Source: a virus. From it: 64,000 bases of DNA. The DNA is taken from the IMG/VR virus record IMGVR_UViG_3300045988_023748; one strand, written 5' to 3'. The notes beneath the pieces were generated by a model. The model was not told the DNA's origin, made no database searches, and saw only the letters and a program-made list of their open reading frames with translations. The position numbers and the translations under genes were made by a program. Shown one piece after another: positions 16,320-63,867 of the stretch (positions within the stretch are counted from its first letter, which is position 1; every line of letters starts with the position of its first letter).

Positions 16320-16562
16320 ATGATAATAGGTAAGAAAGTAAATAAGATTACTAGTTCTTCTCTGGCAGAAGAATCCTCCAAGATTATTGATGCATTTCAG
16401 TCTACTGTTAATAAGTTACGTGATGTAGCTAAAAGAGCAGATGATGAGAAAGCAGCTAAAGAACAAGAGATTATTTCATTACAAACTGAGACAGCTAATC
16501 TTAGCGAAGTCTCTAATAAAGCAACTTCCATGGCCGATAAGATTGGAAGTTTACTTCAATAA
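16320..16562 (+). CDS. hypothetical protein (80 aa)
   Basis: ORF track. Confidence 0.4.
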   Translation: MIIGKKVNKITSSSLAEESSKIIDAFQSTVNKLRDVAKRADDEKAAKEQEIISLQTETANLSEVSNKATSMADKIGSLLQ

Positions 16563-16566
16563 TCAA

Positions 16567-17452: not shown

Positions 17453-17542
17453 AGACCGTCAAGCATGGTGGGATAAGCAGTCTGATACATTCAAAAGGGC
17501 TACTACAAGACCAGGTTCTATTAAAAAGAAAGCATAAAGATT

Positions 17543-18364: not shown

Positions 18365-18376
18365 AATTTAATTATC

Positions 18377-20389
18377 GTGGAATTTATTGATTTTAAACGA
18401 GCAGTTTATAAGCAATTTGATGCCTTAGCTAATAATGCTGATAGATTGTATTTAACTAATGTTAATAAGGATGAGCTGTGGGATTGTTACATAGATTCTT
18501 ATCCAGAAGACGAGAGACAATCACATACATGTAATTGCTGTCGTCAATTTATCAAACCTTATGGCAATGTAGTTGCAATAGTTAATAACAAGTTAGTAAG
18601 TATTTGGGATTCCTTAGTGTTAGATGAACCTTATGCTACAGTAGCCAGAAACTTAGCCCAACTTGTTAAATCTAAACCAGTATGTGACGTATTTGTTAGT
18701 AAGGTGGTTAAACTGGGTACAGATAAGAACAATGTGTGGATAGAAACTCCTACGAGACACGTACATACATGGAATCATTTATTTTACAAGCTTCCTAATC
18801 ATTTACTTTGTGCAGTATCTGATTCTGAAGAAGCAGTAAGAGGAGCACTTCGTACCAATAAAACAGTATTGAAGCGGGCTTTGGATGAGTTATCCATGGA
18901 TGCTTTTGACATTGTTCTGGATTTGATTTCACAAGGTTCTTTGTATCGTGGAGACCAGTACAAATCCGATCTAGAGGCATTTGTTGCACTTAAGAAGAAA
19001 TATGAAGTAGTACCCCGTGAGGAACGTGATAATTTCTGCTGGGTTGAATCTGCTAAAGTTGGATATGTAGGACGTATTAGGAATACTGCTATAGGCACTT
19101 TGCTTGTAGACATCTCCAATGGACGTGAACTTGATGAAAGTGTAAGAGCTTACGAGAGAATAGTAGCTCCTGCTAATTATCAAAGACCTAAGACAATAGC
19201 TACTAAGAAGATGATTCAAGCTGCTGAAGCTAGGGTTATTGAACTAGGGCTAATGGATGCACTTCCAAGGCGACATGCAGAAATTACTGACATTACAGTT
19301 AATGATGTAATCTTTGCTGATAGAAATGCTAAGAAGTCAATGCTTGGGAATAGTGTATTCCAAGATTTAGCGGAAGATATTCCAGTTAATCCTAAGAAAT
19401 TAGGTACTGTTGCTGAAATATCAATTGAGGACTTTATTAAGGATGTTGTTCCCAATGCTACCAGTATAGAAGTTCTATTAGAAAGTAGACATATAAACAA
19501 CCTTATGACTCTAACAGCTCCATCTAATAAAGATGCAAAGAATCTATTTAAATGGCCAAACAATTTCGCTTGGACATACAATGGAGACCTTGCAGATTCT
19601 TCTATTAAGGATAAGGTGCAGGCTGCTGGAGGTAAGGTGAATGGATATCTAAGGTGTTCTCTTGCATGGTATAATGGTGATGATTTAGACATCCATATCA
19701 TACAACCTTGGGGTAGTGAAATCAATTACTCGTGTAGAGCTGGAGCCTCTGGTGGGGTGCTAGATGTCGACATGAATGCTGGTGGTATACATTCTCGTAA
19801 ACCAGTAGAGAACGTTATCTGGGAGGATGAACCGCGTATGGAAGGTATGTATACCGTATATGTACACAATTTCTGCAAAAGAGATTATCACGATGTTGGA
19901 TTTACTGTTGAAATTGAATGTAACGGAGAAGTACGTGAGTATACCTACACAACAGATCTTCGAGGTCGTGATAAAGTGACAGTAGCCAGATTTGAGTATT
20001 CTAAGGCCAAGGGAATTGTCATACATGATGTCCTTCCGAGTAATTCAAGTGATAAAGAGACGTGGAACTTGTCTACTAACAAATTCCATAAGGTATCGTT
20101 ACTCACTCTGTCTCCAAATTATTGGAACGGTGCAGAAGTAGGCAATAAACACTATTTCTTTATCTTAGATGGGTGCAAGAATCCATCTCCAGTAAGAGGA
20201 TTCTTTAACGAATATCTTAGGAGTGAACTATCTCAGGATCGTAAGACATTTGAGATGTTAGCTAATAAGATGAAGGCTCCTTATTCTGATAATCAGTTGA
20301 GTGGTTTAGGATTCTCATCTACCATCCGCAATAGTGTTATCTGTAAAGTTACTGGCAGCTTTACAAGAACCATTAAAGTTAACTTTTAA
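18377..20389 (+). CDS. large hypothetical protein (670 aa)
   Basis: Long ORF with an N-terminal Cys cluster HTCNCCRQF. No domain recognisable by eye. Confidence 0.55.
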   Translation: MEFIDFKRAVYKQFDALANNADRLYLTNVNKDELWDCYIDSYPEDERQSHTCNCCRQFIKPYGNVVAIVNNKLVSIWDSLVLDEPYATVARNLAQLVKSKPVCDVFVSKVVKLGTDKNNVWIETPTRHVHTWNHLFYKLPNHLLCAVSDSEEAVRGALRTNKTVLKRALDELSMDAFDIVLDLISQGSLYRGDQYKSDLEAFVALKKKYEVVPREERDNFCWVESAKVGYVGRIRNTAIGTLLVDISNGRELDESVRAYERIVAPANYQRPKTIATKKMIQAAEARVIELGLMDALPRRHAEITDITVNDVIFADRNAKKSMLGNSVFQDLAEDIPVNPKKLGTVAEISIEDFIKDVVPNATSIEVLLESRHINNLMTLTAPSNKDAKNLFKWPNNFAWTYNGDLADSSIKDKVQAAGGKVNGYLRCSLAWYNGDDLDIHIIQPWGSEINYSCRAGASGGVLDVDMNAGGIHSRKPVENVIWEDEPRMEGMYTVYVHNFCKRDYHDVGFTVEIECNGEVREYTYTTDLRGRDKVTVARFEYSKAKGIVIHDVLPSNSSDKETWNLSTNKFHKVSLLTLSPNYWNGAEVGNKHYFFILDGCKNPSPVRGFFNEYLRSELSQDRKTFEMLANKMKAPYSDNQLSGLGFSSTIRNSVICKVTGSFTRTIKVNF

Positions 20390-20400
20390 ATGAAAATGTT

Positions 20401-20775
20401 ATGTTTGAGAAAGCATCAAGGGTAAAATTACGTTATTCCACTAATCGTGGAGTATTATCTGTTGAAGATTTGTGGGATTTATCTCTGGAACAACTTGATC
20501 CTATTGCTATTAATCTTAATAAGAGGCTAAAGGAATCACAAACCGAAAGTTTCATTAAGATTCGTACTAAAGACACCACTGAACTTGAACTGAAATTCAA
20601 TATTGTAAAACACATTATTGACGTTAAGTTACAGGAACAGGAAGAACGCATTGTAGCTGCTGAGAAGAAAGCTAAGCGTCAAAAGATTCTTGATCTCATG
20701 GCTAAGAAACAGGATGCAGAGCTTGAGAGTAAATCTTATGAAGAATTGGCTAAAGAGCTTGAAGCATTGTCTTGA
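20401..20775 (+). CDS. coiled-coil hypothetical protein
   Basis: ORF track. KE-rich. Confidence 0.45.
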   Translation: MFEKASRVKLRYSTNRGVLSVEDLWDLSLEQLDPIAINLNKRLKESQTESFIKIRTKDTTELELKFNIVKHIIDVKLQEQEERIVAAEKKAKRQKILDLMAKKQDAELESKSYEELAKELEALS

Positions 20776-20778
20776 GTT

Positions 20779-21039
20779 ATGAATTCTGAGAGAGAATTAG
20801 AGAAGTGGCAAAAGGTAAATAGTGCAGAGACCAAAGAACAGTTATTTGAAGCTGTAGATTTTATTTGCGCTGATGAACCTAATGGACTAATTGGTACTAC
20901 TGGTAAATTATTTACTGCCGACAAATTGAAAAGAAGCATTAATGCAGCCATAACTGGAAGGTTTAATGCCAATGTTGTTACACGTAGATACGGTTTAAGG
21001 CAGCAAGTATTGTACTTAATGTACTATGGTATAGAATAA
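20779..21039 (+). CDS. hypothetical protein (86 aa)
   Basis: ORF track. Confidence 0.4.
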   Translation: MNSERELEKWQKVNSAETKEQLFEAVDFICADEPNGLIGTTGKLFTADKLKRSINAAITGRFNANVVTRRYGLRQQVLYLMYYGIE

Positions 21040-21271
21040 TTATAATAGAGGGGATGTAGGCTTAAAAGCGGCCATCATTTAAAGAGTTGCGAGTAGGTTT
21101 CTATTGAAGTATAATTAGGCAGCATCCTTACTGATAGCCTCGAATCAAGAATGTAATAATGTCGTTTAGAATACTCATGTTGAAACTGCCTATATAGACG
21201 GAGGAAGGTAAACGAGATAAGAGTGAAACTCAGTCAGAGCATTTGGCGTAACAGCACACCCTCTATTCTTT

Positions 21272-21343
21272 AGTCTTATAGTTTAACGGATAGAATACCA
21301 TACTACGGATATGGAGGTTTCAGTTCGATTCTGAATAAGACTA
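21272..21343 (+). tRNA. tRNA-Arg(ACG)
   Basis: agtctta/taagact perfect acceptor, anticodon arm ccata-ctACGga-tatgg, T-arm ttcag-ttcgatt-ctgaa. Confidence 0.8.
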
Positions 21344-21518
21344 CTAATTTAATAAATATGGAAAGAGAATTGTATAACTGGTTGGAAAGAGAGTTCTATA
21401 AAAGTAATCACACTAAATATCATAGATATTTTAAAGAATGGATTACTAATATATGTCCCCATCAAGTTGAGGGCTTTAGAAATCAAATGATTGGCCAACT
21501 AACTAAATCTAAAGTGAA

Positions 21519-21827
21519 ATGACAGATGTTGTAAGTGTTCTTAAAAAAGCTAAAGAATTATTTGTAACCCACCCTGAATACTGGGGAATGTGTTTCTGTA
21601 TAGAACACGCTATGGCAGGAACCGAACGTGGAATCACTATTTATAGCCAACGTGATATAATTACCATGATTCCAGAATTTAACAGGAAGTTTCTAAATGC
21701 TCCTAAAGACAGGTATGGTAAAGCTTATTGGTGGACCCCTGATAGTGAGGAAGGACATAATGCTAGAGTTAAAGCATTTGATAAACTTATTAAGTACTAT
21801 GAACTGGATAAGAAGAATCATGAATAA
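21519..21827 (+). CDS. hypothetical protein (102 aa)
   Basis: ORF track. Confidence 0.4.
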   Translation: MTDVVSVLKKAKELFVTHPEYWGMCFCIEHAMAGTERGITIYSQRDIITMIPEFNRKFLNAPKDRYGKAYWWTPDSEEGHNARVKAFDKLIKYYELDKKNHE

Positions 21828-22164
21828 ACTGTTTATTGACAATGAATCGTTTGATATTGATGAAGATGATATTACCCTGTCACAAATAAAGAATAGAATT
21901 TATGTGAATGGTAAATTAATATCTGAAGTCAATAATGATAGTGTACATATCAGTTTTACTGGTAATGTAAAGGAGCTTAACTGTAATACATGTGACATTG
22001 ATGGAAACGCTCTTACTGTACATGGTAATAGTGTCAAAGTTAAAGGTAATGTAGGAGGTAGTATAGAAGCTAACAGCATCGAAGTAGGTGGTGATGTAGA
22101 GGGAGATATTACTGCTAACTCTGTTAAAGTAAGAGGTAAACATACCGGATCTATTAGTATGTAA
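21821..22164 (+). CDS. bactofilin-like beta-helical repeat protein
   Basis: Repeats NSVKVKGNVGGSIEANSIEVGGDVEGDITANSVKVRG follow the bactofilin GxVxGxI pattern. Probable start at ATG 21821 within track ORF 21697..22164. Confidence 0.4.
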
Positions 22165-22171
22165 CCGTCAA

Positions 22172-22245
22172 GGCTTGATAGCTCAATAGTATAGAGCATC
22201 TCCGTCCTAAGGAGCAGGTTGTGGGTTAGAGTCCCACTCAAGTCA
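22172..22245 (+). tRNA. tRNA-Arg(CCU) with unusual T-loop (ttagagt) and G32
   Basis: ggcttga/tcaagtc acceptor, gctc-aatagtata-gagc, loop gtCCTaa, T-arm gtggg-ttagagt-cccac. Confidence 0.6.
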
Positions 22246-40054: not shown

Positions 40055-41623
40055 ATGAGAAACGAAACTCTAGTCAAATTGATCAGTCACTTACATAACG
40101 TAATTAAAGATAATGTTAGTATGAATGCTTATGCTGAGAAGACAGGTCTTCCTCAGAATTATTTCTGCAATAAGCGTAAGCAACTGGAGTTTGACTATGA
40201 GGCTAACAAGGTATCTAATGAACAGTATTCTACTGTCATGGATTTGTTTAAACAGATTAAAGAACGAGGTTATGTTGGAACTACTAAATCCAAGGCTAAG
40301 AAGACCTCTGAAAAGACTAGTACTGGAACCATTCAGTATATAAGAGACACAGAAGGTAGGATTATTGCCTATGAATTTACTGTGCCTTTGCGTGATAAAG
40401 CTCCTTTAGCCGGAAGACTTACACGTGATGAAATGAATATGATTTATAGATTGTATTCATATTATGGCTCTTCTATCACGCAAAGAGAAGTTAGCCGTAG
40501 CTTCCCAGAATATTCATTGGAAGATTTCAAGAAGATTCTGAGAGTATTTAATATTACTAAGGCTTCAGCTCCGTTTGCTCCTCATATCATAGAGGAGAAT
40601 ACTCCTGAACAGCTTCAGGTTATGCAACTAAGAGAGAAGGAGAATGACTTTCTTAGAGGCATAGAAACTCAAAGGATAAAACAGAATGAATCCTTATTAA
40701 AGAAATATGCATTAGAGAATGCAGAATTAAAGTCTAAGATTGAAGATGGTAAACATATTCTAGAAGGTTTAGACATTAATAATTTGTATGATTGGGGCAA
40801 AGCACCTATGATAACCAATGGTAAAGACTTAATCATTTGGCTATCTGATATTCATACTGGAGCAGCTGTATCTCCACAATCTATTTATCAAAATCCTTAT
40901 AATGAGGAAGAGATGAAGAGAAGATTTGATATGATTCTTAAAAGAGTATATACAGAAGCCTATCATATAGGTGGAGGATTTGAGAATATTGTTATCTGTA
41001 ATCTTGGAGACTCTCTAGATGGATATAATGGTCAGACTACTAGAGGTGGACATGACCTAGCTCAAAATATGAGCAATAAGGAACAACTGCATACTTATAT
41101 AAAACTAATGACTAGTTTTATTAAGTCTATACAGGAAGAGATTAAGCATTCCAATTTATATTATTACTGCGTTGGGGAATCCAACCATGACGGTGATTTT
41201 GGATATGCTGCTAATATAGCATTGGCTGCTATACTTGAACAGTTCGATATTAAGTGTCAAGTATTTGATAAATTTATCGGAGAGTTCAAACTTGGTGACG
41301 TTACTTATGTAATGTGTCATGGTAAAGATAACAAGGATATGTTCAAGAATTTACCGCTAACCTTAGATGTAAAGACTGAGAATTTTATTAATGAGTATCT
41401 AGATAATAGGGGAATCTCCGGTAATGTAGTCTTTGTAAAAGGAGACTTGCATCAGTCCGCTACTACCTATGGTAGAAGATTTACTTATAAGTCTGTAGGC
41501 TCATTATTTGGAAGTTCTGAGTGGATACACAAGAACTTCGGTAATACATGTTGGAGCTGTGACTATTCTATTGTCGACGAAGCTGGTAATAGATTAGATG
41601 GATTAATCACAGCTAAGTCCTAA
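40055..41623 (+). CDS. calcineurin-like metallophosphoesterase (Mre11/SbcD-like) with N-terminal DNA-binding region
   Basis: Motifs LSDIHTG, CNLGDSLDG, VGESNHDGD (DxH, GDxxD, GNHD). Confidence 0.5.
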   Translation: MRNETLVKLISHLHNVIKDNVSMNAYAEKTGLPQNYFCNKRKQLEFDYEANKVSNEQYSTVMDLFKQIKERGYVGTTKSKAKKTSEKTSTGTIQYIRDTEGRIIAYEFTVPLRDKAPLAGRLTRDEMNMIYRLYSYYGSSITQREVSRSFPEYSLEDFKKILRVFNITKASAPFAPHIIEENTPEQLQVMQLREKENDFLRGIETQRIKQNESLLKKYALENAELKSKIEDGKHILEGLDINNLYDWGKAPMITNGKDLIIWLSDIHTGAAVSPQSIYQNPYNEEEMKRRFDMILKRVYTEAYHIGGGFENIVICNLGDSLDGYNGQTTRGGHDLAQNMSNKEQLHTYIKLMTSFIKSIQEEIKHSNLYYYCVGESNHDGDFGYAANIALAAILEQFDIKCQVFDKFIGEFKLGDVTYVMCHGKDNKDMFKNLPLTLDVKTENFINEYLDNRGISGNVVFVKGDLHQSATTYGRRFTYKSVGSLFGSSEWIHKNFGNTCWSCDYSIVDEAGNRLDGLITAKS

Positions 41624-41703: not shown

Positions 41704-42483
41704 ATGGACGAACAAAATTTTAAATTTAATTATGTATTCCAGGGACAAGATTGTACCCTATCAACTGGAGTCTATAAGATTACTATCCAGAATCATGTTT
41801 ACATCGGTAGTGCAGCAATCTCTTTTAGAAAACGGTGGAGACAACACCAGTTAGACTTTATTAGAGATATACACCACTCTAGGTTCGCGCAGAACGCATT
41901 TAATAAATATGGCATTGCCACATTTGAGATAATGGAATTATGTCCTAGGGAACTATGCATAGAGAGGGAGCAATGGTGGATAGACACTTTGAAACCAGAC
42001 CTGAATATTCAAAAGATTGCTGATAGTGCTTTAGGAGTCAAGAGGACTGAGGAAACTAAGCGGAAATGTAGAGAGGCTCACTTGGGAAAGAGGTTGTCTG
42101 AGGAAGCTATAGCTAAGAGAACAGCAAAGCAAGTTAAGACAATCTATCAATATGATTTAGATGGAAATCTAATCAAGGAATGGGATAGTGTTAAACAAGC
42201 TGGAGAAGCTCTTGGAATTAATAGACCTTCTATTAGTAACTGTTTAAAAGGTAGATACAAGTCTGCTGGGGGATTCATTTGGAGGTATTCTGTGGAAGAG
42301 GTTTCTCCTGTGAAGAAAACCAAGTCTATAGAACAATATGATTTGGATGGAAATTTAATTAAAGTATGGGACAGTATAAATTCTATTGAAAATGGGACTG
42401 ATTACAAAAGGAAGACAATTTATGCTTGTGCAAATGGTCAAAATAGTACAGCGTATGGATATGTATGGAAGTATTGTAGATAA
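41704..42483 (+). CDS. GIY-YIG endonuclease with NUMOD-like repeats
   Basis: VYKITIQNHVYIGSAAISFRKRWRQH, and a C-terminal IEQYDLDGNLIK repeat. Confidence 0.7.
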   Translation: MDEQNFKFNYVFQGQDCTLSTGVYKITIQNHVYIGSAAISFRKRWRQHQLDFIRDIHHSRFAQNAFNKYGIATFEIMELCPRELCIEREQWWIDTLKPDLNIQKIADSALGVKRTEETKRKCREAHLGKRLSEEAIAKRTAKQVKTIYQYDLDGNLIKEWDSVKQAGEALGINRPSISNCLKGRYKSAGGFIWRYSVEEVSPVKKTKSIEQYDLDGNLIKVWDSINSIENGTDYKRKTIYACANGQNSTAYGYVWKYCR

Positions 42484-42489: not shown

Positions 42490-43668
42490 ATGCTTAATGT
42501 CAGAATTATTACTATAATGCCTAAGAAACTTACTACTGAAGAATGGATTAATAAAGCTAGAATTAAACATGGAGATAAATATGATTATTCTAAATCTGTG
42601 TACACTGGAAGTAGAGATAGAATAATCATCACTTGTCCGAAACATGGCGACTTTACAGCTATATCCGGATTGCATATTTCTAGAGGGGATGGTTGTCCTG
42701 AGTGTGCTTCATTAGCTAAAAGTAGCAAGCTTTCATTATCTAATGAAGAATTTATTAACCGTTTACGTGACATGTTTGGGGATAATTATGATTACTCTAA
42801 AGTCAAATATAATGGCACTAGAGGGTATGTTACCATAGTATGTCCTAAACATGGTGAATTTAAGGCCCGTGTTGGCACTCTATCGAGAGGTGTAGGATGT
42901 CTGAAATGTAAAGAGGAAGAAAGACTTAAAAAGTTTAATGACCTTTACATAAAGAAATTTAAGGAGTACTACCCAGATTTAGATTATAGTAAAACTGTAT
43001 ATACTGGGTGGGATACTAGAATAGTTATAACATGCCCCAAACACGGTGACTTTGAAGTCCTTCCTAACCACTTTCTTAGGTATAAAGGGTGTCCAAAATG
43101 CTCTGCTGAAAGTCATGCAAAGTATATGCAGAAGTCCTTAGATGACTTTCTAAAGGATGCCAGACGCATTCATGGCACACGTTATGATTATTCTAGAGTA
43201 GAGTACAACGATAGTCGTACAAAGGTCTGTATTGTATGCCCTGAACATGGTGAATTTTGGCAGACTCCAAATAGCCATATACAAGGTAGTGGCTGCCCTA
43301 GCTGCTCAAGTTCAAAGGGCGAAGAAGAGGTATGTAACATTTTGTTAAGTAATGGAATTAAATTTATAAGGGAATACACTATCCAAGTGCCTAATGAGAT
43401 TAACACCTCTGGACACGCTTATATTGATTTTTACTTACCAGAATATAATACCTTTGTGGAATATAATGGCATTCAACATTATAATCCTAAAATGGCATTT
43501 GGCGGGTCTTTCAAATTTGAGCGACAACAAGCTCGTGACGAGTATGTTAGGCAATATTGTAAAGACAATAATATCAAATTAATAGAGATTCGTTATGATG
43601 AAGATGTGTGGGAAGTTTTGACCAGAGAACTTCTTGATAATCAAACAACAAACGAAGAATGCAAATAA
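42490..43668 (+). CDS. multi-zinc-ribbon protein with C-terminal DUF559/Vsr-like endonuclease domain
   Basis: Four copies of the unit CP(K/E)HG(D/E)F...GCPxC. C-terminus HAYIDFYLPEYNTFVEYNGIQH (DF...E.NG.H). Confidence 0.45.
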   Translation: MLNVRIITIMPKKLTTEEWINKARIKHGDKYDYSKSVYTGSRDRIIITCPKHGDFTAISGLHISRGDGCPECASLAKSSKLSLSNEEFINRLRDMFGDNYDYSKVKYNGTRGYVTIVCPKHGEFKARVGTLSRGVGCLKCKEEERLKKFNDLYIKKFKEYYPDLDYSKTVYTGWDTRIVITCPKHGDFEVLPNHFLRYKGCPKCSAESHAKYMQKSLDDFLKDARRIHGTRYDYSRVEYNDSRTKVCIVCPEHGEFWQTPNSHIQGSGCPSCSSSKGEEEVCNILLSNGIKFIREYTIQVPNEINTSGHAYIDFYLPEYNTFVEYNGIQHYNPKMAFGGSFKFERQQARDEYVRQYCKDNNIKLIEIRYDEDVWEVLTRELLDNQTTNEECK

Positions 43669-44443: not shown

Positions 44444-45490
44444 ATGTTAGTAATTAAAAGAAATAAGAGAGTAGAACCTTTCGATATTAATAAGATTGAC
44501 GCGGCTATTACTAAGGCGTTCAATGCTGTTAACGAACCAATTGATTCCGATATTTTGGATGATATTAAAGATGAATTGTATATTAACAACATAGTATCAG
44601 TAGAAGAGCTTCAAGATCAAATTGAAAAGGCTTTGATGGCTTGTGATTACTATGATGTCGCTAAAGCATTCATTTTGTATCGACATAAACAAGCTGAACT
44701 TAGAGCATTAGCTGGGAAGAAGCAGTTTATTAAGGATTATGCCAAAGCATCTAATGCTGCTACAGGTAGTAAATATGATGCTAATGCCAATGTTACTGAG
44801 AAGAATATAGTAACTTTAAATGGAGAGTTGTTTAAGGGTGATGTAATTAAAGTTAATAGAGCAATCCTTACAGATAAAATTAGGCAGTTATATGGTGAAG
44901 ATTTAGCTAAGGAGTATATTAGACAACTGGAATCTCATGAACTTTACAAGCATGATGAAACATCAATTATGCCCTACTGCGTGGCTATCACTATGTATCC
45001 GTTCCTACTTGAAGGGCTACAGCCAATTGGAGGTTTGTCTGCCAAGCCTAAGAATCTGGACTCCTTCTGCGGTATGTTTGTTAATCTGGTATTTGCTATC
45101 AGCTCGCAATTCGCTGGAGCAGTAGCTACTGGTGAGTTCCTAATGTATTTCGATTATTTCGCTCGTAAAGAATGGGGTGATGATTATTGGAAACGTCCAG
45201 AAGAGATGGTTGATAAACATAGAAATATTGATAAGACTATTGAACAGAAGTTCCAACAGATTGTATATTCAATCAATCAACCAGCAGCTGCTCGTAACTT
45301 CCAATCAGTATTCTGGAATATCAGTTATTTTGATAAGAATTACTTTGAAGGTTTATTTGGTGAGTTTGTATTCCCCGATGGAACTAAGCCCATATGGGAT
45401 TCTTTGAACTGGTTACAGAAGAAGTTTATGACTTGGTTTAACGAGGAGAGGACTAAGTGCATATTAACGTTCCCTGTGAATTTCGCAGCT
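44444..45490 (+). CDS. nrdD: anaerobic ribonucleotide reductase NrdD, exon 1 (ATP-cone plus N-terminal catalytic region)
   Basis: ATP-cone VIKRNKRVEPFDINKIDAAITKA. Terminates at a TGA that is followed by intron core blocks. Confidence 0.65.
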
Positions 45491-46295
45491 TGATAGAGTA
45501 ATCTATCTCGAACAACTCCTCTAATTGCTGGGACATCTTAACATTAATTAATGGTAGAAAGTTAGGAAATGTAAGTAAATTACATTATCTTTGCACTAGA
45601 TAATTAGTATTAAGACAATCAGCAGCTAAGCATTATGGAAGAAATTTGGAAAGAAATCCCTAACTATGAAGGGTACTTTGAAGTAAGTACTTTAGGTAAC
45701 TTTAGAAGTAAAGATAGAATTATCAAGTATAAGCAATCTGGAACTCGTAATTATCCTGGCAAATCACTTAAAGTAGAGGTTATGCAAGATGGTTACAGTA
45801 GGATTGTGTTAATGAAAGAAGGTGTTAAGAAAAGATATATGTGTCATAGGCTTGTAGCTGAGACGTACATACCAAATCCTGACAACAAACCTTACGTTAA
45901 TCATATAGATGGCAATCGTTCTAATAACTGTGTAGAGAACCTAGAATGGTGCACACAGTCAGAGAATGAAAGACACTCTGTAGATGTACTTGGTAAGTCT
46001 ATGAAGGGGAAGACTGCTCCAAAGGCAGTCAGATGTATAGAGAATGATACTATATATAAATCTATGAGTGAAGCAGTACGCCTTATAGGTAAGCCATCTT
46101 GTGTGGAAGGGTTACATAAAGCTATCAATGCTAATAGGTTGTATCATGGATATACATTTGAGTTCTGTAATGAAAGTTCAACGACTATCTCGAAAGAGAG
46201 TACACTGTAAGCTATTGACAGTGGAAATGGGGAGAATCCTAATAGGATTGTGATATAGTCTGACCTGTATGGTGACATACAGCAGTTCATAAGAG
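45491..46295 (+). mobile_element. group I intron 1 in nrdD with HNH endonuclease (boundaries approximate)
   Basis: AACTCCTCTAATTGCTGGGA is shared with the helicase intron (29058), as are CGACTATCTCGAAAGAGAGTACA and CCTAATAGG. GATATAGTC motif plus a P9-like hairpin ctgtatggtgacatacag. Confidence 0.55.
45635..46210 (+). CDS. HNH homing endonuclease (NUMOD4 plus HNH)
   Basis: EIWKEIPNYEGYFEVSTLGNFRS, then VNHIDGNRSNNCVENLEWCTQSENERH. Confidence 0.8.
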   Translation: MEEIWKEIPNYEGYFEVSTLGNFRSKDRIIKYKQSGTRNYPGKSLKVEVMQDGYSRIVLMKEGVKKRYMCHRLVAETYIPNPDNKPYVNHIDGNRSNNCVENLEWCTQSENERHSVDVLGKSMKGKTAPKAVRCIENDTIYKSMSEAVRLIGKPSCVEGLHKAINANRLYHGYTFEFCNESSTTISKESTL

Positions 46296-47123
46296 AACGC
46301 ATATAGTGTAGCGAACTATATGGAACATATGTGGGAAACTGTAGCACTTCTTACTGATGGAGAGGATGTAGTAGATAAAGAATGGGCAGACTTTACAGCA
46401 GAGATGTATAGTAAGGGACACTCATTCTTTACTTATATGTCTGATTCAGCAGATAGTCTGTCAAGTTGTTGTAGACTTCGCAATGAAGTAACTGATAATC
46501 AATTTAGTTATTCTCTTGGAGCTGGTGGTATTGCTACTGGTAGCAAATCTGTAATGACTTTAAATATTAATAGATTAGTTCAAGATGCAGTTAATAACGG
46601 ATACGATATGATTGAGTATTTACGTGAAAACGTTCAGAAAGTTCATAAATATCAAACTGCATATAATGAATTACTCAAAGACTATTTAAATGATGGTTTA
46701 CTAACTGTCTATTCTGCTGGATTCATTCATATGAAGAAACAGTATTTGACTGTAGGTGTTAATGGAGTTATCGAAGCTGCTGAGTTCTTAGGAATTCCAG
46801 TTAATGATAATCCTACTTACAGAGAATTTATGCAATCTATCCTTAAAACTATTAGCGATGAAAATCGTAAAGCTAGAACTAAGGAGTTGATGTTTAACTG
46901 TGAGTTTGTCCCAGCGGAGAACCTGGGAGTTAAACATGCTATGTGGGACAGGAAGGCAGGTTACTTTGTACCAAGAGATTGCTATAATAGTTACTTCTAT
47001 GCTGTAGAAGATACTTCCTTGACTATACTTGATAAATTTAAACTACATGGTAAAGATTATATCAAGTATCTTGATGGTGAACAATCGCCTGTTATATCTT
47101 TGCGTTTAACCAGACGGGTATAG
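46296..47123 (+). CDS. nrdD: NrdD exon 2 (middle region)
   Basis: The in-frame reading opens at 46296 after the last upstream stop. The track ORF starts at ATG 46320. Confidence 0.55.
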   Translation, partial: NAYSVANYMEHMWETVALLTDGEDVVDKEWADFTAEMYSKGHSFFTYMSDSADSLSSCCRLRNEVTDNQFSYSLGAGGIATGSKSVMTLNINRLVQDAVNNGYDMIEYLRENVQKVHKYQTAYNELLKDYLNDGLLTVYSAGFIHMKKQYLTVGVNGVIEAAEFLGIPVNDNPTYREFMQSILKTISDENRKARTKELMFNCEFVPAENLGVKHAMWDRKAGYFVPRDCYNSYFYAVEDTSLTILDKFKLHGKDYIKYLDGEQSPVISLRLTRRV

Positions 47124-48140
47124 TAATTAACTATGCTAACGGGGAAGCCTGAAGCTTGAGTCGTGAGACTAGATGTATGGTAATCCCGTGGGAAATTAAT
47201 TATGATGTATGAGTTGCACATCTCCATTTAAATTAGTAAATTTGTAGAAATTATTAATATAATGATCATCTATAAAATTACTAACAGTATTAACGGCAAG
47301 GTGTATATAGGTTTAACTACAGTTACACTAGAAGCAAGATGGAGAGGTCACATAAGAGACAGTAGAGTGTGTGATAGACACTTATATAGGTCTATGCGTA
47401 AATACGGTCTTGAGAACTTTACTATAGAAGAGATAGATAATACTGACGACTTTAAGAAGCTTGGGGAATTAGAGAGGTACTATATAAAGACCTTTGATTC
47501 CAGGAATCCTGATAAAGGATATAATATTACTGGGGGAGGTGAATCTAACCAGTTAGACGGAAACCCTAGAGCTAAACTTAAAGTGGAAGATGTAATTCAA
47601 ATTCGAGAGATTTACTCTTATGGAGACTTGAGATGTAAGGAATGTTGGGAGATGTTTAAGGATAGAATCTCCTACTCAGCATTTCAGAAGATTTGGGAAG
47701 GAATTACTTGGCAATCTGTTATGCCGGAAGTTTATACTGAATCTAATAAAGTACATCATAGTTCTCAAAAGAGTAATCCAGGAAGTTTGAATGGTAATGC
47801 AATATACTCTGACGAAGAAGTCTTAGAGATACGTAAGTATTATACTAATCATACCTTAACAGAAACATATGAGAAGTATGGTAGCAGAAGTAAATCTAAA
47901 GATAGCTTTAGAGGTTTAATTGCTAATTCATATAAACATCTTCCAATCTACAGTAAAGTTAAATCTGCCTGGCTACTTAATGGTCAGGAGATAAACATTG
48001 ATAATTATAATCCTGTATCGACTATCCTCGGATCGGAGGAGTAAGGCAGCTATTGGTACGCTGCTTGAAATGGATATTGCGGAAGTACTTCCGTTAAGAT
48101 ATAGTCAGTGCTAATGGAAACATTAGATAAACACGGGTAG
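47124..48140 (+). mobile_element. group I intron 2 in nrdD with GIY-YIG endonuclease (different intron family; boundaries approximate)
   Basis: GAGACTAGATG (P7 5'-like) at 47170 and TTAAGATATAGTCAG (P7 3'-like) at 48083. A TAAATTTG box precedes the ORF. Confidence 0.5.
47262..48044 (+). CDS. GIY-YIG homing endonuclease
   Basis: IIYKITNSINGKVYIGLTTVTLEARWRGH. Confidence 0.7.
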   Translation: MIIYKITNSINGKVYIGLTTVTLEARWRGHIRDSRVCDRHLYRSMRKYGLENFTIEEIDNTDDFKKLGELERYYIKTFDSRNPDKGYNITGGGESNQLDGNPRAKLKVEDVIQIREIYSYGDLRCKECWEMFKDRISYSAFQKIWEGITWQSVMPEVYTESNKVHHSSQKSNPGSLNGNAIYSDEEVLEIRKYYTNHTLTETYEKYGSRSKSKDSFRGLIANSYKHLPIYSKVKSAWLLNGQEINIDNYNPVSTILGSEE

Positions 48141-54544: not shown

Positions 54545-55933
54545 ATGCGTATAAATCAATCTTCTAAGTTTAATGTTAATTATGCAGCTAAGATAATTCA
54601 AGTAAAAGATTTCACACCACACCCTAATCCTAAATGTGAAAGGATGAAATGTGTTCATGTAGATGGTTATATGATATCCGTATCTAAGGATACTCAACCA
54701 GGGCAATATATATATTTCCCTGTAGGATGTCAGATTGCTAATAAATATTTGGCAGCTAATAATCTATTTAGACACAATGAATTCAATGCTAACAAGGAAG
54801 CTTCTCCAGGTTTCTTTGAGGATAATGGTAGGGTAAAGCCTATTAAGTTGCAGGGAGTTCCTTCAGAGGGATTTATAATGCCTATAGATTCGTTATATAA
54901 ATGGCTGGATTTTATAGGAGAATCTCATGAAGTAGTTACCAATTTGAAAGAAGGAACAGAATTTGATAGTTTGGATAAACATATACTTTGTAAGAAGTAT
55001 GTAGTGAATCCTCCTAAAACTTCTGGAAATTCTTCTAGGCAAGCTAAGCAGCCTAAAGGCATTAGTAAATTAGTAGAGAATCAGTTTAGATTTCACTATG
55101 ATACTGTTCTCATTAAGAAATGTCCTTGGGTTATTAAACCTAATGATATTATTAGTATTACTTCCAAAGTACATGGAACATCAGGTATTTCTGCCGATGT
55201 ACTATGTAAAAGACCATTAAGATGGAAAGACAAGGTGGCTAGCTGGTTCACAGATGTTCCAGACACTAAGTATGACTACTTATGGTCTTCTAGAAAGGTA
55301 GTTAAAAATCAGTATTACAATAAAGAAGCAAGTGCAGGATATTATGGTTGTGATATTTGGGGTGAAGCTCATTCTAAATTGTCTCCGTATCTTACTAAAG
55401 GACTTACTCTTTATTATGAAATCATAGGATGGCTGCCTACAGGTCAGGCTATTCAAGCAATGAATGGTAAAGCTTATGACTATGGTTATGAGAGACCTAT
55501 ATGGGATCCTACTACTCAGACTACACCGTATGAATATGGTAAGAATTTCGGTATCCAAATTTACCGTATTACTTATACAAATCCAGATGGTGTGGTATTT
55601 GAATTCTCTGCTAGACAAGTACAACAGTGGTGTAAAGATAAAGGACTTACTCCGGTAGAACAGTTATATTACGGATATGCTAAGGATTTATATCCAGAGC
55701 TTGATGAGACTGAGCATTGGAATGAGAATTTTATCCAAAAGCTAGCTAATGATAAAAGGTTCTACATGGAAGAACTTTCACCTACATGTCACAATGATGT
55801 ACCACATGAAGGTATAGTGATTCGCATTGAGAATGGTTTATCTGAAGCTTACAAACTTAAATGCTTTAGATTCTTAGGAGAGGAGTCTAAGTCATTAGAT
55901 AAAGGAGAAATTGATATAGAAGCAGACCAGTAA
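54545..55933 (+). CDS. RNA ligase-like nucleotidyltransferase (Rnl2-type motif I)
   Basis: ITSKVHGTSG resembles KxHG motif I of Rnl2 ligases. It is the second ligase-superfamily gene, besides the DNA ligase. Confidence 0.5.
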   Translation: MRINQSSKFNVNYAAKIIQVKDFTPHPNPKCERMKCVHVDGYMISVSKDTQPGQYIYFPVGCQIANKYLAANNLFRHNEFNANKEASPGFFEDNGRVKPIKLQGVPSEGFIMPIDSLYKWLDFIGESHEVVTNLKEGTEFDSLDKHILCKKYVVNPPKTSGNSSRQAKQPKGISKLVENQFRFHYDTVLIKKCPWVIKPNDIISITSKVHGTSGISADVLCKRPLRWKDKVASWFTDVPDTKYDYLWSSRKVVKNQYYNKEASAGYYGCDIWGEAHSKLSPYLTKGLTLYYEIIGWLPTGQAIQAMNGKAYDYGYERPIWDPTTQTTPYEYGKNFGIQIYRITYTNPDGVVFEFSARQVQQWCKDKGLTPVEQLYYGYAKDLYPELDETEHWNENFIQKLANDKRFYMEELSPTCHNDVPHEGIVIRIENGLSEAYKLKCFRFLGEESKSLDKGEIDIEADQ

Positions 55934-57431: not shown

Positions 57432-57826
57432 GTAGTTATTTATCATTTTATTTAGTGCCTAAAGCACATCCAGAGGAGAGGTTACTACTTCAATCATTCA
57501 GTAGGTCTAATGAGGTGTATCAAAGATTCTTTGATAATCTTAGTATAGCATATGCTGGTAATGAAGAGAAGTATACTAAACTCACTGTTAGTGATGTTGG
57601 ATCAGTAATTCGAGACCTTGATGATGACATTGCTAAAGCAGAAGCGAGGCGAGTAGAGTACGAGAAATTCTGTCATGGCAATTCGGAACTTATAGAGGAG
57701 ATGATATCCACTAAGGAATATATACGGGATTTACAAAGTACTAGAGATTACATATCGTTTATACGAGACATTTTAGCTGACTTAGATTATAGCGGATTTA
57801 GTGATGTTTTATGTAATATTGATTAA
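57428..57826 (+). CDS. hypothetical protein
   Basis: ORF track. Lies between the CCA enzyme and Pnk genes. Confidence 0.4.
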   Translation: MSSYLSFYLVPKAHPEERLLLQSFSRSNEVYQRFFDNLSIAYAGNEEKYTKLTVSDVGSVIRDLDDDIAKAEARRVEYEKFCHGNSELIEEMISTKEYIRDLQSTRDYISFIRDILADLDYSGFSDVLCNID

Positions 57827-58752
57827 TGGAAACTAGAGTATTAGTAATCTGTAGAGGAATTCAGGGAAGTGGCAAAACTAGTTTTGCTAAGCAGTGGTGT
57901 CATGAAGACCCGGAGCACAGAGTAAGATTTAACAATGACGATATTCGTAACATGCTGGGAGACTATTGGGTTCCTAGTAGAGAGGATGTTGTCACTGCAA
58001 CTTATAACACTGTACTAGCTTATAGTATGGAGAAAGGTTATAACATCATAGTTGATAATATGAACCTCAACCCTAAAACTTGTGCAGAGTTAGAGAAGAT
58101 GGTTAAGGACTTTAACGAGAATTATACCTACGATTGGAAGTATGAGATTGAATACAAAGATTTCTGGACTCCCGTAGATGAGTGTGTTCGTCGTGATGCT
58201 AAAAGAGAACATCCTATAGGTGAGAAAGTTATTAGACAGACTTGGAGACGCTATAGAGACTTCATAATTCATGAGGAAATTATGGCTGCTAAGGCTAAAG
58301 CATTAGTTCAAGACACTAACCTACCAGCAGCAATTATAGTAGATATGGATGCAACTGTGTGTCTGAATACTAGTGGTCGTCCGTTCTATGGAGAAGGTGC
58401 AGCTGAAGGTATGCTTACTGATGAGCCTATTACTCCTATTCTTGAACTTATTAGAAACTTCTGTGATAATTATCCTGCCAAGTTAATAATACTAACTGGT
58501 AGGGAAGATACTCCTGAAGTTCGTAAAGCTACAGAACAGTGGTTGGAGAATAACTTCCTACATCCAGATATGATTCTTATGCGTCCCGCTAATAGCTTCG
58601 TAGCTGGTCCTATATGTAAGAAGAAACTGTATGAGGACAATATCAAAGGCAAATTCTACATACCTTTCGTGCTTGAAGACAATTGTAAGTGTGTAGAGAT
58701 GTGGAGAAATGAAGGCTTAATTTGTTTACAACCAAACGAAGGTAAATTCTAA
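57826..58752 (+). CDS. pnk: polynucleotide 5'-kinase/3'-phosphatase (T4 Pnk-like)
   Basis: N-terminal P-loop ICRGIQGSGKTSFAK and a C-terminal HAD DxDxT motif IIVDMDATVC. Confidence 0.7.
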   Translation: METRVLVICRGIQGSGKTSFAKQWCHEDPEHRVRFNNDDIRNMLGDYWVPSREDVVTATYNTVLAYSMEKGYNIIVDNMNLNPKTCAELEKMVKDFNENYTYDWKYEIEYKDFWTPVDECVRRDAKREHPIGEKVIRQTWRRYRDFIIHEEIMAAKAKALVQDTNLPAAIIVDMDATVCLNTSGRPFYGEGAAEGMLTDEPITPILELIRNFCDNYPAKLIILTGREDTPEVRKATEQWLENNFLHPDMILMRPANSFVAGPICKKKLYEDNIKGKFYIPFVLEDNCKCVEMWRNEGLICLQPNEGKF

Positions 58753-60726: not shown

Positions 60727-62627
60727 ATGATATATCTAGTAAGTAATCAGAAATCACTATTTGAAACTGATGCTTATAAAGAACTGTCTCTGTCTGACGC
60801 TATAGACATGATAATGCCTCATAGTTGGATAGAATATGATAGTGAAACTGCTGGTCTTGATCCATATACAAAACCTCTATTGTGTACTCAATATGGTTTA
60901 GGAGAGGATCAGATAGTTATTGATAATGTAACCATTCCAATTGAAAAGCTTAGATGTGTGCTTGAAGATCCTACTAAAACATTTCTAGGTTGGAATATTG
61001 CGTTTGATTTAAGGTTTCTATATCATCATAGAATAGTTCCTTATAATGTATGGGATGGAATGATTGCTGAGAAGATACTCTATCTAGGGTATCCTCCTCA
61101 GTTTCATAGTCTTGCTTTAAAAGCTGCCGCTGACTTCTATCTTGGTATAGATATTGATAAAACAGTTCGAGGACAAATTATCACACAAGGTTTAACAATA
61201 CCAGTAGTACAATATGCTGCTGGTGATGTTATGTATCTTACTAAGATTAAAGAGAAGCAAGATGCAGAGCTAGAGAAGAAAGAATTAACTAAGGCTGCTG
61301 AATTTGAAATGAAGTTTACTCCAGTAATTGCTTATATGGAATATTGTGGAGCTAAACTTGATCCAATCAAATGGAAGCAAAAGATGTCGAGGGATAAAGA
61401 AGAAGTTAATAAAGCAGAAGCTGCTCTTAATAAGTGGGTAGAGGATTATTATGAAGAACATAAATCTTCTACTGAGGGATATATTAGAGTATCTACCGAA
61501 GAAGTTCCCATTATGGAAGAGTTTAAACTATTTGATTCCCTAAACAATAATATGAGTAATGTAAAGAGAGTTCAGAATCCTCAAACTGGACTTATTCATT
61601 ATGAGTATGATAAAGCATTTCCATATGTAACACGTAATCTACAGGGAGATTTGTTCTCTGGATTTGATACTTGTGCTAAATGTAATGTAAACTGGTCTAG
61701 TAGCCAACAAGTAGTGCCTTTATTTGAACATCTAGGTCTTAACTGTACTACTATAGACCCAAAGACTAAAGTTAAGAAGAAATCTGCTGATATAAAGCTT
61801 ATTAAGCCACAAGCCAATAAGTGTACTATAGTTCCATTATATGTAGAGTATAAGAAGGCTAAAATACTTGTTGATACTTTTGGGCAGAAGTTTATAGATA
61901 AGATTAATCCAGTTAGTGGACGTATTCATCCAGATTATTTCCAATTAGGAGCCGATACTGGTCGATTGTCTGCAACCAACCCGTCCCTAATGAATCTTCC
62001 ACATGATCCATTTACTAGAAGTTGTTTTATAGCAGATTCTGGATATAAATGGATCAGTTGTGATTATAAAGGACAGGAATCCTTCTTAATGGCGTCTATT
62101 GCTAATGATGTGGCCATGTTGGACGAATTAGTAAATGGAAGTGGAGATTTACATAGTCTAACTGCTAGAATAGTATTCACTGATATTCCTGATGATACTC
62201 CATTATCTGAAGTTAAGGCTAAATATAAACCTCTTAGAGATGCTGCTAAAGGGTATGAGTTCTGTTTCAACTATGGAGGAGATTGGAACACTTTAATGAA
62301 GAACTATGGTCTTACTAAGAGAAGGGCTCAAGAAGTATATGATAATTATATGTCTGGTTTCTCTGGATTAAAGAGATATCAGGAATTTAGGAGGGAAGAC
62401 GTTCTAGATAAGGGATATATCCTTCTTAATCCTATTACTAAACATAAAGCATTCATATATGATTGGGATAATCTTTGTAAGATAGACAGCGAATTGGGTT
62501 CTCCAGAAGCTAAATATATGTTAGGATCTAACGGTGATAATTATTACAAAACAAGCTCTCAGCATTTGAGGAGAAGGTTATCTGATTCAATGAAACAATC
62601 TATTAACTATCCGATGAACTCACAAGT
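60727..62627 (+). CDS. polA: family-A DNA polymerase with 3'-5' exonuclease, exon 1 (through motif B)
   Basis: Exo motif YDSETAGLD; motif A SCDYKGQE; motif B RDAAKGYEFCFNYGG. Ends at PMNSQ(V), where Pol I has PMQGTAAD. Confidence 0.7.
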
Positions 62628-63626
62628 TGTGTCGGAGTAAAACTCCCTTAATTCGGTGAACCCTGGAGCACAAGTCGTGATGATTAACTGTATGGGAATA
62701 CCGAGCCAACCTAAACAGTAATGTTTAGAAGTGTGTAGAGACTAGAACACGGATTCCTTACTTTAGATGGTAAGGAAGGTAAAGTTCCACGAACAGGGAG
62801 AATATGTTATGTATTACACATAATATTAATTATCTTTGCAGGGTAATTAATAATTAAAAATTGTATTATGTGTAGTACTAAAATTTGCAAACGTTGTAAT
62901 AAAGAACAATCTATAGACAACTTCTATAAAGTCCCGTCTATGAAAGATGGACATGATAATACATGTAAGACTTGTAGGAAGGAGTTAAGAAGACTAAGAG
63001 ACGGAGTTAAAGTAACACCTATAGTTACTGAAGGTACACTAATCTGTCCTGTATGTAAACAAGAGTTACCAGTAGATAAGTTTGATACTTATGCTAAAAG
63101 TAAAACTGGTAGATATTGGATGTGTAGTGATTGCTATAAAGAGCATACATTAATTAATGGTGGACAAGATAAGAACTATTTCAGGAAGCTTAGAATTAAA
63201 CTATGTCCAGAATATAGAGAAGAAATTCAGCAGCAGAAGAAGGCGTCCAGAGAACGTAACATAGAACAAGCTATGTTAACCAGTGCCAAAAATCGTGCTG
63301 CCAGAAAGGGGTTAGAATTTAACTTGGAACTGTCTGATATAGTAATTCCAGAGAAATGTCCGCTGTTGGAAGTTCCATTCCATTTTGGAACTAAAGAATG
63401 CTATGATTACTCTCCATCTATTGATAGAATTGACAATTCTAAAGGATACGTTAAGGGAAATATTCAAATCATCAGTATGAAAGCTAACGCTATGAAGAAC
63501 TCTGCGTCTCTTGAGGAGTTATACACGTTTTGTAAAAACATATTAAGATATAGTCCGAACTGCACCGAACAGGTACAGAATTAGAGGATAAAGAGCCTCT
63601 AAGATAACAGAATGACAACATGCTGG
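62628..63626 (+). mobile_element. group I intron in polA carrying an HNH endonuclease (boundaries approximate)
   Basis: GAGACTAGAAC and TAAGATAACAG P7-like elements, plus a TATCTTTG box at 62831. Exon 2 has no need for its own start codon if spliced. Confidence 0.5.
62868..63584 (+). CDS. HNH-family homing endonuclease with N-terminal zinc fingers
   Basis: CxxC pairs ICPVCK/CSDC. C-terminal ...IDRIDNSKGYVKGNIQIIS..AN.MK HNH-like motif. Confidence 0.6.
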   Translation: MCSTKICKRCNKEQSIDNFYKVPSMKDGHDNTCKTCRKELRRLRDGVKVTPIVTEGTLICPVCKQELPVDKFDTYAKSKTGRYWMCSDCYKEHTLINGGQDKNYFRKLRIKLCPEYREEIQQQKKASRERNIEQAMLTSAKNRAARKGLEFNLELSDIVIPEKCPLLEVPFHFGTKECYDYSPSIDRIDNSKGYVKGNIQIISMKANAMKNSASLEELYTFCKNILRYSPNCTEQVQN

Positions 63627-63867
63627 TTCTATGTGTTTCAAATTATCTGCCATTAAATTCTTTAATTGGCTAAGGAAGAACAATTTGTTATTCACAGTTA
63701 GATACTGTGTACCTGTTCATGACGAGCACAATGTCGAAGCACCTGAAAATATTGCTGAAGAGGTAGGTAAGATACTTGTGAAGTGTATGGAAAGTGGAGG
63801 TGAGCCATTCTGTACTAGAGCACATTTAGGTGCAGATATATCTATTGAAGACTATTGGGTACATTAA
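63627..63867 (+). CDS. polA: polA exon 2 (motif C)
   Basis: FKLSAIKFFNWL aligns with Pol I IKRAMIAVDAWL. VPVHDE is motif C (QVHDE). Confidence 0.65.

Follow-up and report, generated by a model that had tools for sequence, protein, structure and literature searches.

The viral DNA analyzed here, a 64,000-nucleotide window from IMG/VR record IMGVR_UViG_3300045988_023748, carries on its plus strand a family A DNA polymerase (PolA) gene, 60727..63867, that is interrupted by a 999-nucleotide (nt) insert at 62616..63614. Three open reading frames (ORFs) occupy this interval: ORF1, an ORF of 238 amino acids (aa) inside the insert, and a downstream ORF of 78 aa (Table 1). ORF1 matched the Pfam families DNA_pol_A_exo1 (6.8e-17) and DNA_pol_A (4.8e-36; profile positions 26-268), and the 78-aa ORF matched the DNA_pol_A profile at positions 309-379; the downstream frame is open from 63616 and reads QHAGSMCFKL...VPVHDE. 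The nearest annotated relatives of the polymerase are crAss-like Bacteroides phages (cr111_1, IAS virus, and crAss001; 40 to 47% identity). A first-pass annotation, made from the letters of the window, had proposed that a group I intron bearing an endonuclease gene splits the polymerase upstream of motif C. This proposal was upheld by the insert boundaries, by the splice-site rules together with the P1 and P10 pairings, by an Rfam match of an ORF-less relative, by covariation, and by a protein alignment that continues across the junction. We consider it about 90% probable that the insert is a mobile, self-splicing group I (IA-like) intron in the PolA gene of a crAss-like gut phage.

The edges of the insert were located by comparison with relatives that lack it. 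In the related phage record MT835470 (85% nucleotide identity), PolA is an uninterrupted gene of 712 aa, and pairwise alignment of the window to this record gave a single clean insertion at 62616..63614 with both ends unambiguous: ...AACTATCCGAT^GAACTC...AGAATG^ACAACATGCTGG... (junctions are marked ^ throughout). Among 29 related IMG/VR loci (relatives are denoted below by L numbers), PolA is uninterrupted in 20, as it is in MT835470, with lengths of 712 to 713 aa, and 9 hold an insert of 978 to 999 nt at the identical nucleotide position. Because the uninterrupted alleles of relatives define its edges, the clean 999-nt insertion lies far beyond chance, and these alleles give an exact length to what had been described as an insertion of about 1 kb. 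They also correct the junction. Exon 1 ends at 62615 with AT, the first two bases of an Ile codon, and the true junction is INYP-I^QHAGSM; the previously proposed INYPMNSQ+AGSM had included part of the last eight codons of ORF1, (M)NSQVVSE and stop, which are read-through into the insert. Inteins are also present in crAss-like phages, and there are reports of group II introns in phages (PMC7886860, PMC12350094), but either kind of element is extremely improbable here. The insert is out of frame with the exons and interrupts the exon frame with stop codons (TAA at 62638), which excludes an intein, and neither a reverse transcriptase ORF nor a group II match in Rfam was found, whereas the RNA fits the sequence elements and topology of group I.

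Predicted ligation of the exons yields a 2,142-nt ORF of 713 aa, ...KQSINYP-I-QHAGSMCFKL...VPVHDE, with the junction AATCTATTAACTATCCGAT^ACAACATGCTGGTTCTATG (...CCGAU^ACAACA...); intron-less alleles of the window lineage read ...TATCCTAT^TCAACATG... at the site. The exonuclease and polymerase domains and motifs A, B, and C would thus be united in a single spliced polypeptide. Motifs A and B lie in exon 1 and motif C is confined to exon 2; a second motif C within exon 1, named in the first-pass annotation as grounds for abandoning the split, is absent. The spliced product shares 91.9% identity with the uninterrupted gene of MT835470. When the joined protein was aligned to Pol I family members, as the same annotation had advised, the match to Pol I of PDB entry 7r0k (query residues 332-690, E 8e-27) spanned the junction without a break and included ...QVHDE, and the product also aligned across the junction to an apicoplast polymerase that reads NYPVQGTCAD...VHDE at the matching place. 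INYPIQHAGS aligns with INAPMQGTAA of the Escherichia coli Pol I C terminus, and therefore the intron interrupts the M848-equivalent codon, directly before Q849, the minor-groove-sensing Gln. The split had been placed between the QGxAAD region and motif C; it is indeed upstream of motif C, but it falls directly before the Q of the QGxAAD equivalent (QHAGSM), within the M848-equivalent codon.

The ends of the insert conform to the splice-site rules, with exon 1 ending in U (U62615) and the insert in G (G63614). U62615 forms a wobble pair with G62631 at the 5' splice site, and this U.G is kept in all seven aligned copies. A contiguous guide, GUUGU-GUCGGA, serves exon 2 through P10 and exon 1 through P1. 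Every helix of the map in Table 1 is present in the window copy, as checked base by base. P7 forms a pseudoknot with P3, and P2 is absent, the gap between P1 and P3 being 6 nt. Subgroup IA2 introns lack P2 and have P7.1 and P7.2, joined by G-U-A, between P7 and P3' (PMC3428280). In the window, two helices are found between P7 and P3', with GGUAAA separating their 3' strands, and covariation there favors a nested layout, an outer helix enclosing a hairpin, over side-by-side hairpins. We grade the intron as IA-like.

Several earlier elements of the map were revised. A by-eye version with P3 as UCGUG/CACGG and P4 as ACUGU/ACAGU was overturned by the Rfam alignment of the L143 copy and by covariation, and a 3-bp P7.2 hairpin, UUC/GAA, was replaced by the GAAC/GUUC outer helix, which shows compensated changes in L164, L143, and the RefSeq phage cr116_1. 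All of the strings quoted in the first-pass annotation occur at or near where it had placed them: GAGACTAGAAC at 62738, TAAGATAACAG at 63600, TATCTTTG at 62831, cacaagtTgtg at 62621, and cacaagtCgtg at 62669. Of its two P7-like strings, the first holds the GACUA 5' strand of P7. The second, TAAGATAACAG, is not the partner, because GACUA pairs perfectly with UAGUC in AAGAUAUAGUCC, inside the ORF, and Rfam aligns AAGAUAUAGUCC to J8/7-P7'. The two 11-mers, taken then for the exon end and a near-duplicate of it, are both intronic, and the near-duplicate is not conserved in relatives. They were rejected as a functional repeat: the first is the P1 loop and guide, which in L030, L021, and L039 varies along with the exons, and the second lies in P5a, which is missing from L021, cr116_1, L164, and L167. 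Separately, GGAG-UAAAA-CUCC (62634..62646) can form a local hairpin in which three P1 guide bases and four from the 5' strand of P3 take part, a possible alternative fold competing with the active structure.

Table 1. Positions of the polymerase exons, predicted intron elements, and other features (window coordinates unless another locus is named)
Feature	Position	Strand	Description
ORF1	60727..62640	+	637 aa; C-terminal end ...SINYPMNSQVVSE, then stop
PolA exon 1	60727..62615	+	Encodes the 3'-5' exonuclease domain together with motifs A and B of the polymerase
Group I intron (predicted)	62616..63614	+	999 nt; GAACUC...AGAAUG; terminal omega-G at 63614
P1	62610..62636	+	Exon UCCGAU 62610-62615 / guide GUCGGA 62631-62636; 6/6 paired
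P10 guide strand GUUGU	62626..62630	+	Pairs with exon 2 ACAAC 63615-63619, 5/5; directly 5' of P1 guide
P3	62643-62647 / 62796-62800	+	CUCCC/GGGAG; agrees with P3 of the Rfam model alignment
P4	62653-62658 / 62699-62704	+	UCGGUG/UACCGA; Rfam alignment, RNAalifold, covariation
P5	62661-62663 / 62694-62696	+	CCC/GGG
P5a extension (optional)	62664-62693	+	Contains cacaagtcgtg
P6	62705..62734	+	GC/GU outer pairs plus CUAAAC 62711-62716 / GUUUAG 62723-62728
P7 5' strand GACUA	62740..62744	+	Inside R element GAGACUAGAAC; pairs with UAGUC 63551-63555, 5/5
Peripheral domain between P7 and P3'	62745..62787	+	IA-like P7.1
P7.1 outer helix	62745-62748 / 62784-62787	+	GAAC/GUUC
Peripheral hairpin	62754-62761 / 62770-62777	+	UUCCUUAC/GUAAGGAA; inside the outer helix
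P8	62801-62807 / 63538-63544	+	AAUAUGU/ACAUAUU; 7/7 paired; loop holds endonuclease ORF
TATCTTTG	62831..62838	+	Possible -7 box of a hypothetical Bacteroidetes-type promoter for the endonuclease ORF
Endonuclease ORF	62868..63584	+	Intron-encoded endonuclease (putative), 238 aa, 717 nt; two zinc ribbons and C-terminal module D186 R187 N190 N198 N207 K210
S element AAGAUAUAGUCC	63545..63556	+	J8/7 and P7 3' strand UAGUC 63551-63555; in-ORF ..L-R-Y-S-P..
P9	63560-63566 / 63572-63578	+	CUGCACC/GGUACAG; one C.A mismatch
P9.1	63581-63587 / 63596-63602	+	UUAGAGG/CCUCUAA
PolA exon 2	63615..63867	+	Third base of the Ile codon; QHAGSMCFKL...VPVHDE (motif C); stop codon
Downstream 78-aa ORF	63631..63867	+	Reads MCFKLSAIKFFNWL...VPVHDE; own ATG at 63631
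L143 intron	L143 1669..1936		268 nt; ORF-less; identical site; P8 a short hairpin
NrdD part 1	44444..45493		Profile positions 33-291
Canonical HNH ORF in NrdD region	45635..46210		phrog_59, 8.8e-46
Second Rfam group I match	45976..46282		29.2 bits, E 2.4e-4; overlaps the HNH ORF
NrdD part 2	46320..47123		Profile positions 290-538
GIY-YIG-type homing endonuclease ORF	47262..48044		After NrdD part 2

The map was scored for covariation in two sets of sequences. The first comprised seven distinct copies and 65 pairs, the interior of the ORF having been cut out and 10 nt of exon retained on each side. In this set, 99.3% of cells were standard-paired, compared with 35 to 46% with slid partners, and 19 pairs showed two-sided changes, compared with 6.6 ± 1.6 in shuffled sets (0 of 500 reached 19) and 0 to 1 with slid partners. 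With cr116_1, L164, and L167 added (10 sequences, 45 core pairs), 99.8% were paired and 24 pairs were compensated, compared with 10.8 ± 2.1 in shuffles. Compensatory changes were found in P1, P3 to P6, P7.1, P8, P9, P9.1, and P10. Both exon-pairing helices follow the exons: three pairs covary in P1 (for example, CCCGAU/GUCGGG in L030 and UAGGAU/GUCCUA in L114), and P10 tracks exon changes as GCUGU/ACAGC in L030 and CUUGU/ACAAG in L021. P3 and P4, invariant until the distant copies were added, then varied as ACCAU/AUGGU in cr116_1 (with three covarying P3 pairs) and as UCGAUG/UAUCGA in L167. Covariation extends to five of the six pairs of P6, four pairs of P8, six of the seven pairs of P9.1, and the P7.1 outer helix (GAAU/AUUC, GCAC/GUGC, and GGUGU/ACACC). 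The S element is invariant except at two places, a single J8/7 base in L030 and, in L167, the base after P7. RNAalifold, run blind to the hand-made map, recovered all nested helices.

A probe of viral contigs with the 14-mer AATACCGAGCCAAC returned mostly chance matches, from which an nhmmer filter kept two new copies, L114 and L143; the weak matches L145 and L113 were not introns. The L143 intron, whose lack of an ORF may mean either that an endonuclease gene was lost or that this is the ancestral state, matched the Rfam group I model (RF00028, Intron_gpI) over its whole length at 45.4 bits (E 1.7e-10).

A divergent endonuclease is the predicted product of the P8-loop ORF. This ORF matched PHROG families 1035, 3322, 3118, 2255, and 3377, labeled "endonuclease VII," "endonuclease," or "HNH endonuclease." A single-sequence search against PDB found nothing. 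A confident AlphaFold (AF2) model built with 33 homologues (predicted local distance difference test [pLDDT] score, 85.5) has as its best PDB matches the beta-beta-alpha-Me enzymes PacI (3m7k) and Hpy99I (3fc3), in agreement with a beta-beta-alpha-metal fold. The family profile matched Hpy99I at E 4e-5 through the middle zinc ribbon, where the catalytic residues of Hpy99I are not kept. Most of the invariant residues belong to the C-terminal beta-beta-alpha module (D186, R187, N190, N198, N207, and K210): DRI(D/N) is found in 108 of 108 full-length homologues, in which N198 and N207 are invariant. The active site departs from the canonical His-Asn-His/Asn, with Arg (D186-R187) replacing the first His to give a D-R...N...N motif. 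The HNH gene of the first-pass annotation accordingly stands as a beta-beta-alpha-Me enzyme at the superfamily level but not as a conventional HNH enzyme, given that Arg and the lack of Pfam or NCBIfam HNH matches; "HNH" is applicable at most in that broad sense.

At E ≤ 1e-5, this large endonuclease family comprises at least 724 clusters (90% identity), almost none of them named. The last ~16 codons of the window ORF overlap P8', J8/7, P7', and P9. Translation of AAAAACAUAUUAAGAUAUAGUCCGAAC (P8'-J8/7-P7') gives the conserved peptide KNILRYSPN, which is kept in 99 of 108 homologues, and 83 of 108 end in a translation of P9.1 (...DKEP..; LEDKEPL). This shared overlap of ORF and ribozyme suggests that most of the family is likewise intron-borne. 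The C terminus of one homologue, P0104 (...QDIVRT..), resembles the AAGAUAUAGUCCGAAC core translated in a frame other than that of ..LRYSPN..; from the peptide, we infer that what is conserved in this case may be the RNA, with the amino acid sequence a by-product. Upstream of the ORF, the TATCTTTG box is kept as TAnnTTTG in five of seven ORF-bearing sequence versions. As an enriched promoter motif it was rejected (69 matches in the window, compared with 69 ± 8 expected), and it is kept as a locally conserved box. In L114, the intron ORF (about 5010..5080) has an in-frame TAG ~20 codons in, and the TAnnTTTG box is lost. TAG recoding occurs in crAss-like phages, and the L114 ORF may be either a decaying endonuclease gene or recoded.

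The distribution of the intron among relatives carries the marks of recent movement. Over its 999 nt, the window intron shows 100% identity to the copies in L014, L015, L016, and L026, in which the exons are ~85% identical to those of the window; the window exons are 99.6% identical to those of the intron-less L027. Of the nine differences between the window and L027 over 2,142 nt, six fall at -17..+1 of the insertion site, and at five of these six the window carries the donor-lineage base. The target site reads TAACTATCCGATACAACATGCTGG in the L001 type and AAATTATCCTATTCAACATGCTGG in the L027 type. Intron-less alleles of the window lineage carry synonymous differences at -2 and +1, positions that pair in P1 and P10. 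Presence and absence of the intron at a precise site, discordance between intron and host, and coconversion of flanking markers are thus all observed. This pattern of identity and clustered differences is the classical signature expected of endonuclease-initiated homing with coconversion, and the intron is genuine and is probably active and recently mobile. More diverged copies (L019, L021, L030, and L039) occur in correspondingly diverged exons.

The same family of introns reaches beyond these loci. In RefSeq cr116_1 (NC_055882.1; Steigviridae, Pamirivirus faecium), a like intron lies at the identical codon, ...AAT TAT CCG AT^GAAATG...AAAATG^A CAA..., with compensated P3, P6, P7.1, and P8 and an endonuclease 47% identical to that of the window. 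That intron is 915 nt long and differs from the window copy in lacking P5a (L169 3283..4197). NC_055882.1 33303..36278 (L169 1493..4468) is annotated as three coding sequences (CDSs) with no intron feature: "DNA polymerase I" of 598 aa, "endonuclease," and a second "DNA polymerase I" of 78 aa. These represent two exons and an intron ORF. In L164 (about 2846..3790) and L167, which belong to other gut-phage lineages, a homologous intron was observed 7 nt downstream, after Q-G codons (...CAG GGT^...^ACA GCT, or NYSSQG^TAAAM), with an endonuclease 48 to 55% identical and the guide retargeted as CAGGGU/GCCCUG; one ribozyme-endonuclease unit therefore uses two neighboring sites in a single conserved motif. 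On a 193-kb contig (L167/L168, 1..4900), PolA is apparently broken by up to three insertions, whose ORFs are LAGLIDADG-like (338 aa), of the window-type endonuclease family (227 aa), and LAGLIDADG_2 (262 aa), with a group I S element near the end of the last.

Several points weigh against reading the insert as a splicing, mobile intron. The window intron scored only 16.2 bits against RF00028, a low score because the 717-nt ORF interrupts P8, and a search of the intron halves against Rfam gave no useful match. Even the best relative, L143, falls 4.6 bits under the curated Rfam gathering threshold of 50 bits. P7 never varies (GACUA/UAGUC in 10 of 10 sequences), and conservation alone speaks for it. 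Splicing is inferred from the anatomy. The endonuclease showed no HNH or Endonuclease_7 match at permissive thresholds (Pfam E ≤ 10 and NCBIfam E ≤ 1), at which weak zinc-ribbon-like fragments alone matched. Because Arg takes the place of the general-base His in 108 of 108 homologues, its catalytic competence is not assured. Finally, metagenome assemblies could in principle contain chimeric joins where strains have in common a 1-kb element that is 100% identical.

This last point raises the question of whether two strains were joined through the shared element, so that the intron-plus arrangement or the transfer signature would be an assembly artifact. The sequences are all metagenome assemblies, many from one dataset (3300045988), and an identical intron is found on different exon backgrounds. 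We nevertheless regard this explanation as highly improbable. Site and boundaries are shared by independent sources (3300023719, 7000000335, 3300007305, ENA, Logan, and RefSeq cr116_1), and the diverged introns of L019, L021, L030, and L039 match their exons. Recipient bases give way to donor bases within ~17 nt of the site at one flank and within ~1 nt at the opposite flank, where shared k-mers are short. The existence of the intron is independent of any single assembly.

The low Rfam score also bears on whether this is a decayed, splicing-incompetent intron or a landed endonuclease gene, leaving either a fractured gene that yields two separate polypeptides or a dead PolA. The ATG of the 78-aa ORF and the two "DNA polymerase I" CDSs of cr116_1 would accord with two separate products. 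A fragment beginning at M63631, however, would lose the conserved Q-H-A-G-S encoded at 63616-63630. The window copy preserves every helix of the ribozyme, and the helices are compensated across lineages, which points to selection on the RNA fold; P1 and P10 covary with exon sequences, and the ORF-less version retains the full ribozyme. The arrangement also persists in many apparently complete phage genomes of 100 to 190 kb. We judge a fractured or dead gene to be unlikely, and we favor the group I intron.

A mechanism consistent with these data can be proposed. The PolA gene and intron would be transcribed as a single pre-mRNA, with the P1-P10 ribozyme formed by folding of the intron. Attack by an external guanosine would occur after U62615, held as U.G in P1; the freed 3'-OH of exon 1 would then attack after G63614, with P10 positioning exon 2, and the exons would be ligated. 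On unspliced RNA, translation would run 8 codons into the intron before stopping, and the resulting polymerase would lack motif C. The product of the P8-loop ORF would most likely cut or nick intron-less PolA near the site during coinfection, and recombinational repair would copy the intron and a few flanking exon bases into the recipient. Cleavage and homing are suggested here by the population patterns.

Group I introns with homing endonucleases have been known in phage polymerase genes since 1990. Among the phages compared here, Pf-WMP3 is a cyanophage, PhiI and W31 are T7-like, and phiL7 is a Xanthomonas phage. PolA introns with HNH nicking endonucleases are described in SPO1 (I-HmuI), SP82 (I-HmuII), Bastille (I-BasI), Pf-WMP3 (I-PfoP3I), PhiI, W31, and phiL7 (PMC3428280; Bastillevirinae survey, PMC11878797). 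The window intron shares with them the host gene family, an IA-like ribozyme, an endonuclease ORF in a peripheral loop, a conserved catalytic region, the lack of P2, and extra helices between P7 and P3'. Its site, equivalent to M848, differs from the published sites at E. coli Pol I positions 674, 676, and 881 (PMC3428280), a comparison outside which the PolA intron sites of Bastillevirinae and Twortvirinae lie; in E. coli phage Bas89, the PolA intron is in the motif B region. The ORF occupies the P8 loop, in contrast to P6a in Pf-WMP3, PhiI, and W31, and the endonuclease differs from the HNH enzymes of those introns in its D-R...N...N motif, its two N-terminal zinc ribbons, and its lack of a Pfam HNH match. 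The predicted beta-beta-alpha-Me fold with zinc sites is shared with the restriction enzymes PacI (3m7k) and Hpy99I (3fc3), with T4 endonuclease VII, and with F-CphI, a homing endonuclease bearing an EndoVII motif (PMC6083498). In the Delta and Zeta groups of crAss-like phages, two reports describe introns found via protein domains in MCP, PolB, primase, ATP_43b, and TerL (PMC7886860, PMC12386605). Those phages and the window have in common that group I introns containing endonuclease ORFs disrupt core replication genes; in the texts consulted, no PolA intron, RNA structure, exact site, or window endonuclease family is described.

The remainder of the window is a block of replication and nucleotide metabolism genes, with 12 tRNA genes (Rfam) in its first third, at 2562..22245, and at least four further homing-endonuclease-like ORFs besides that of the PolA intron. 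The fragmented genes and homing-endonuclease ORFs match the intron-rich crAss-like groups (PMC7886860, PMC12386605). An NrdD-like anaerobic ribonucleotide reductase gene is fragmented across 44444..48044 and probably holds one or two more introns (Table 1). Two homing-endonuclease-like ORFs lie side by side at 41704..42483 (phrog_314, 9e-25) and 42490..43668 (phrog_559, 4.7e-83), directly after an SbcD-like exonuclease gene (40055..41623). Just upstream of PolA, one gene encodes an RNA ligase (54545..55933) and another encodes a polynucleotide kinase (57826..58752); both genes together with the tRNA genes suggest a tRNA repair module.

The element adds to a known kind, the phage PolA group I intron with a homing endonuclease, and leaves the principles of group I introns and of homing unchanged. 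Its endonuclease belongs to a large, unnamed family with a noncanonical active-site motif and a frame that overlaps the ribozyme core. Frequent exchange of DNA polymerase genes has been reported in crAss-like phages. We raise, as a conjecture that may well prove wrong, the idea that this is an uncharacterized homing-endonuclease family (Arg for the general-base His, with a degenerate EndoVII-like zinc module) whose C-terminal coding sequence overlaps the catalytic core of a single ribozyme lineage and is thereby permanently joined to it, that the unit spread into PolA across many Crassvirales lineages, using two sites separated by 7 nt, and that the resulting PolA breaks could be one driver of polymerase exchange. 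For annotation, the finding matters in that gene callers report a truncated PolA for human gut phages that belong to a very abundant group; exact boundaries and structure provide correct PolA proteins for phylogeny and for studies of polymerase switching. The identical intron on 15%-diverged exon backgrounds, with a coconversion tract of ~17 nt, would constitute a natural record of recent homing in these phages.

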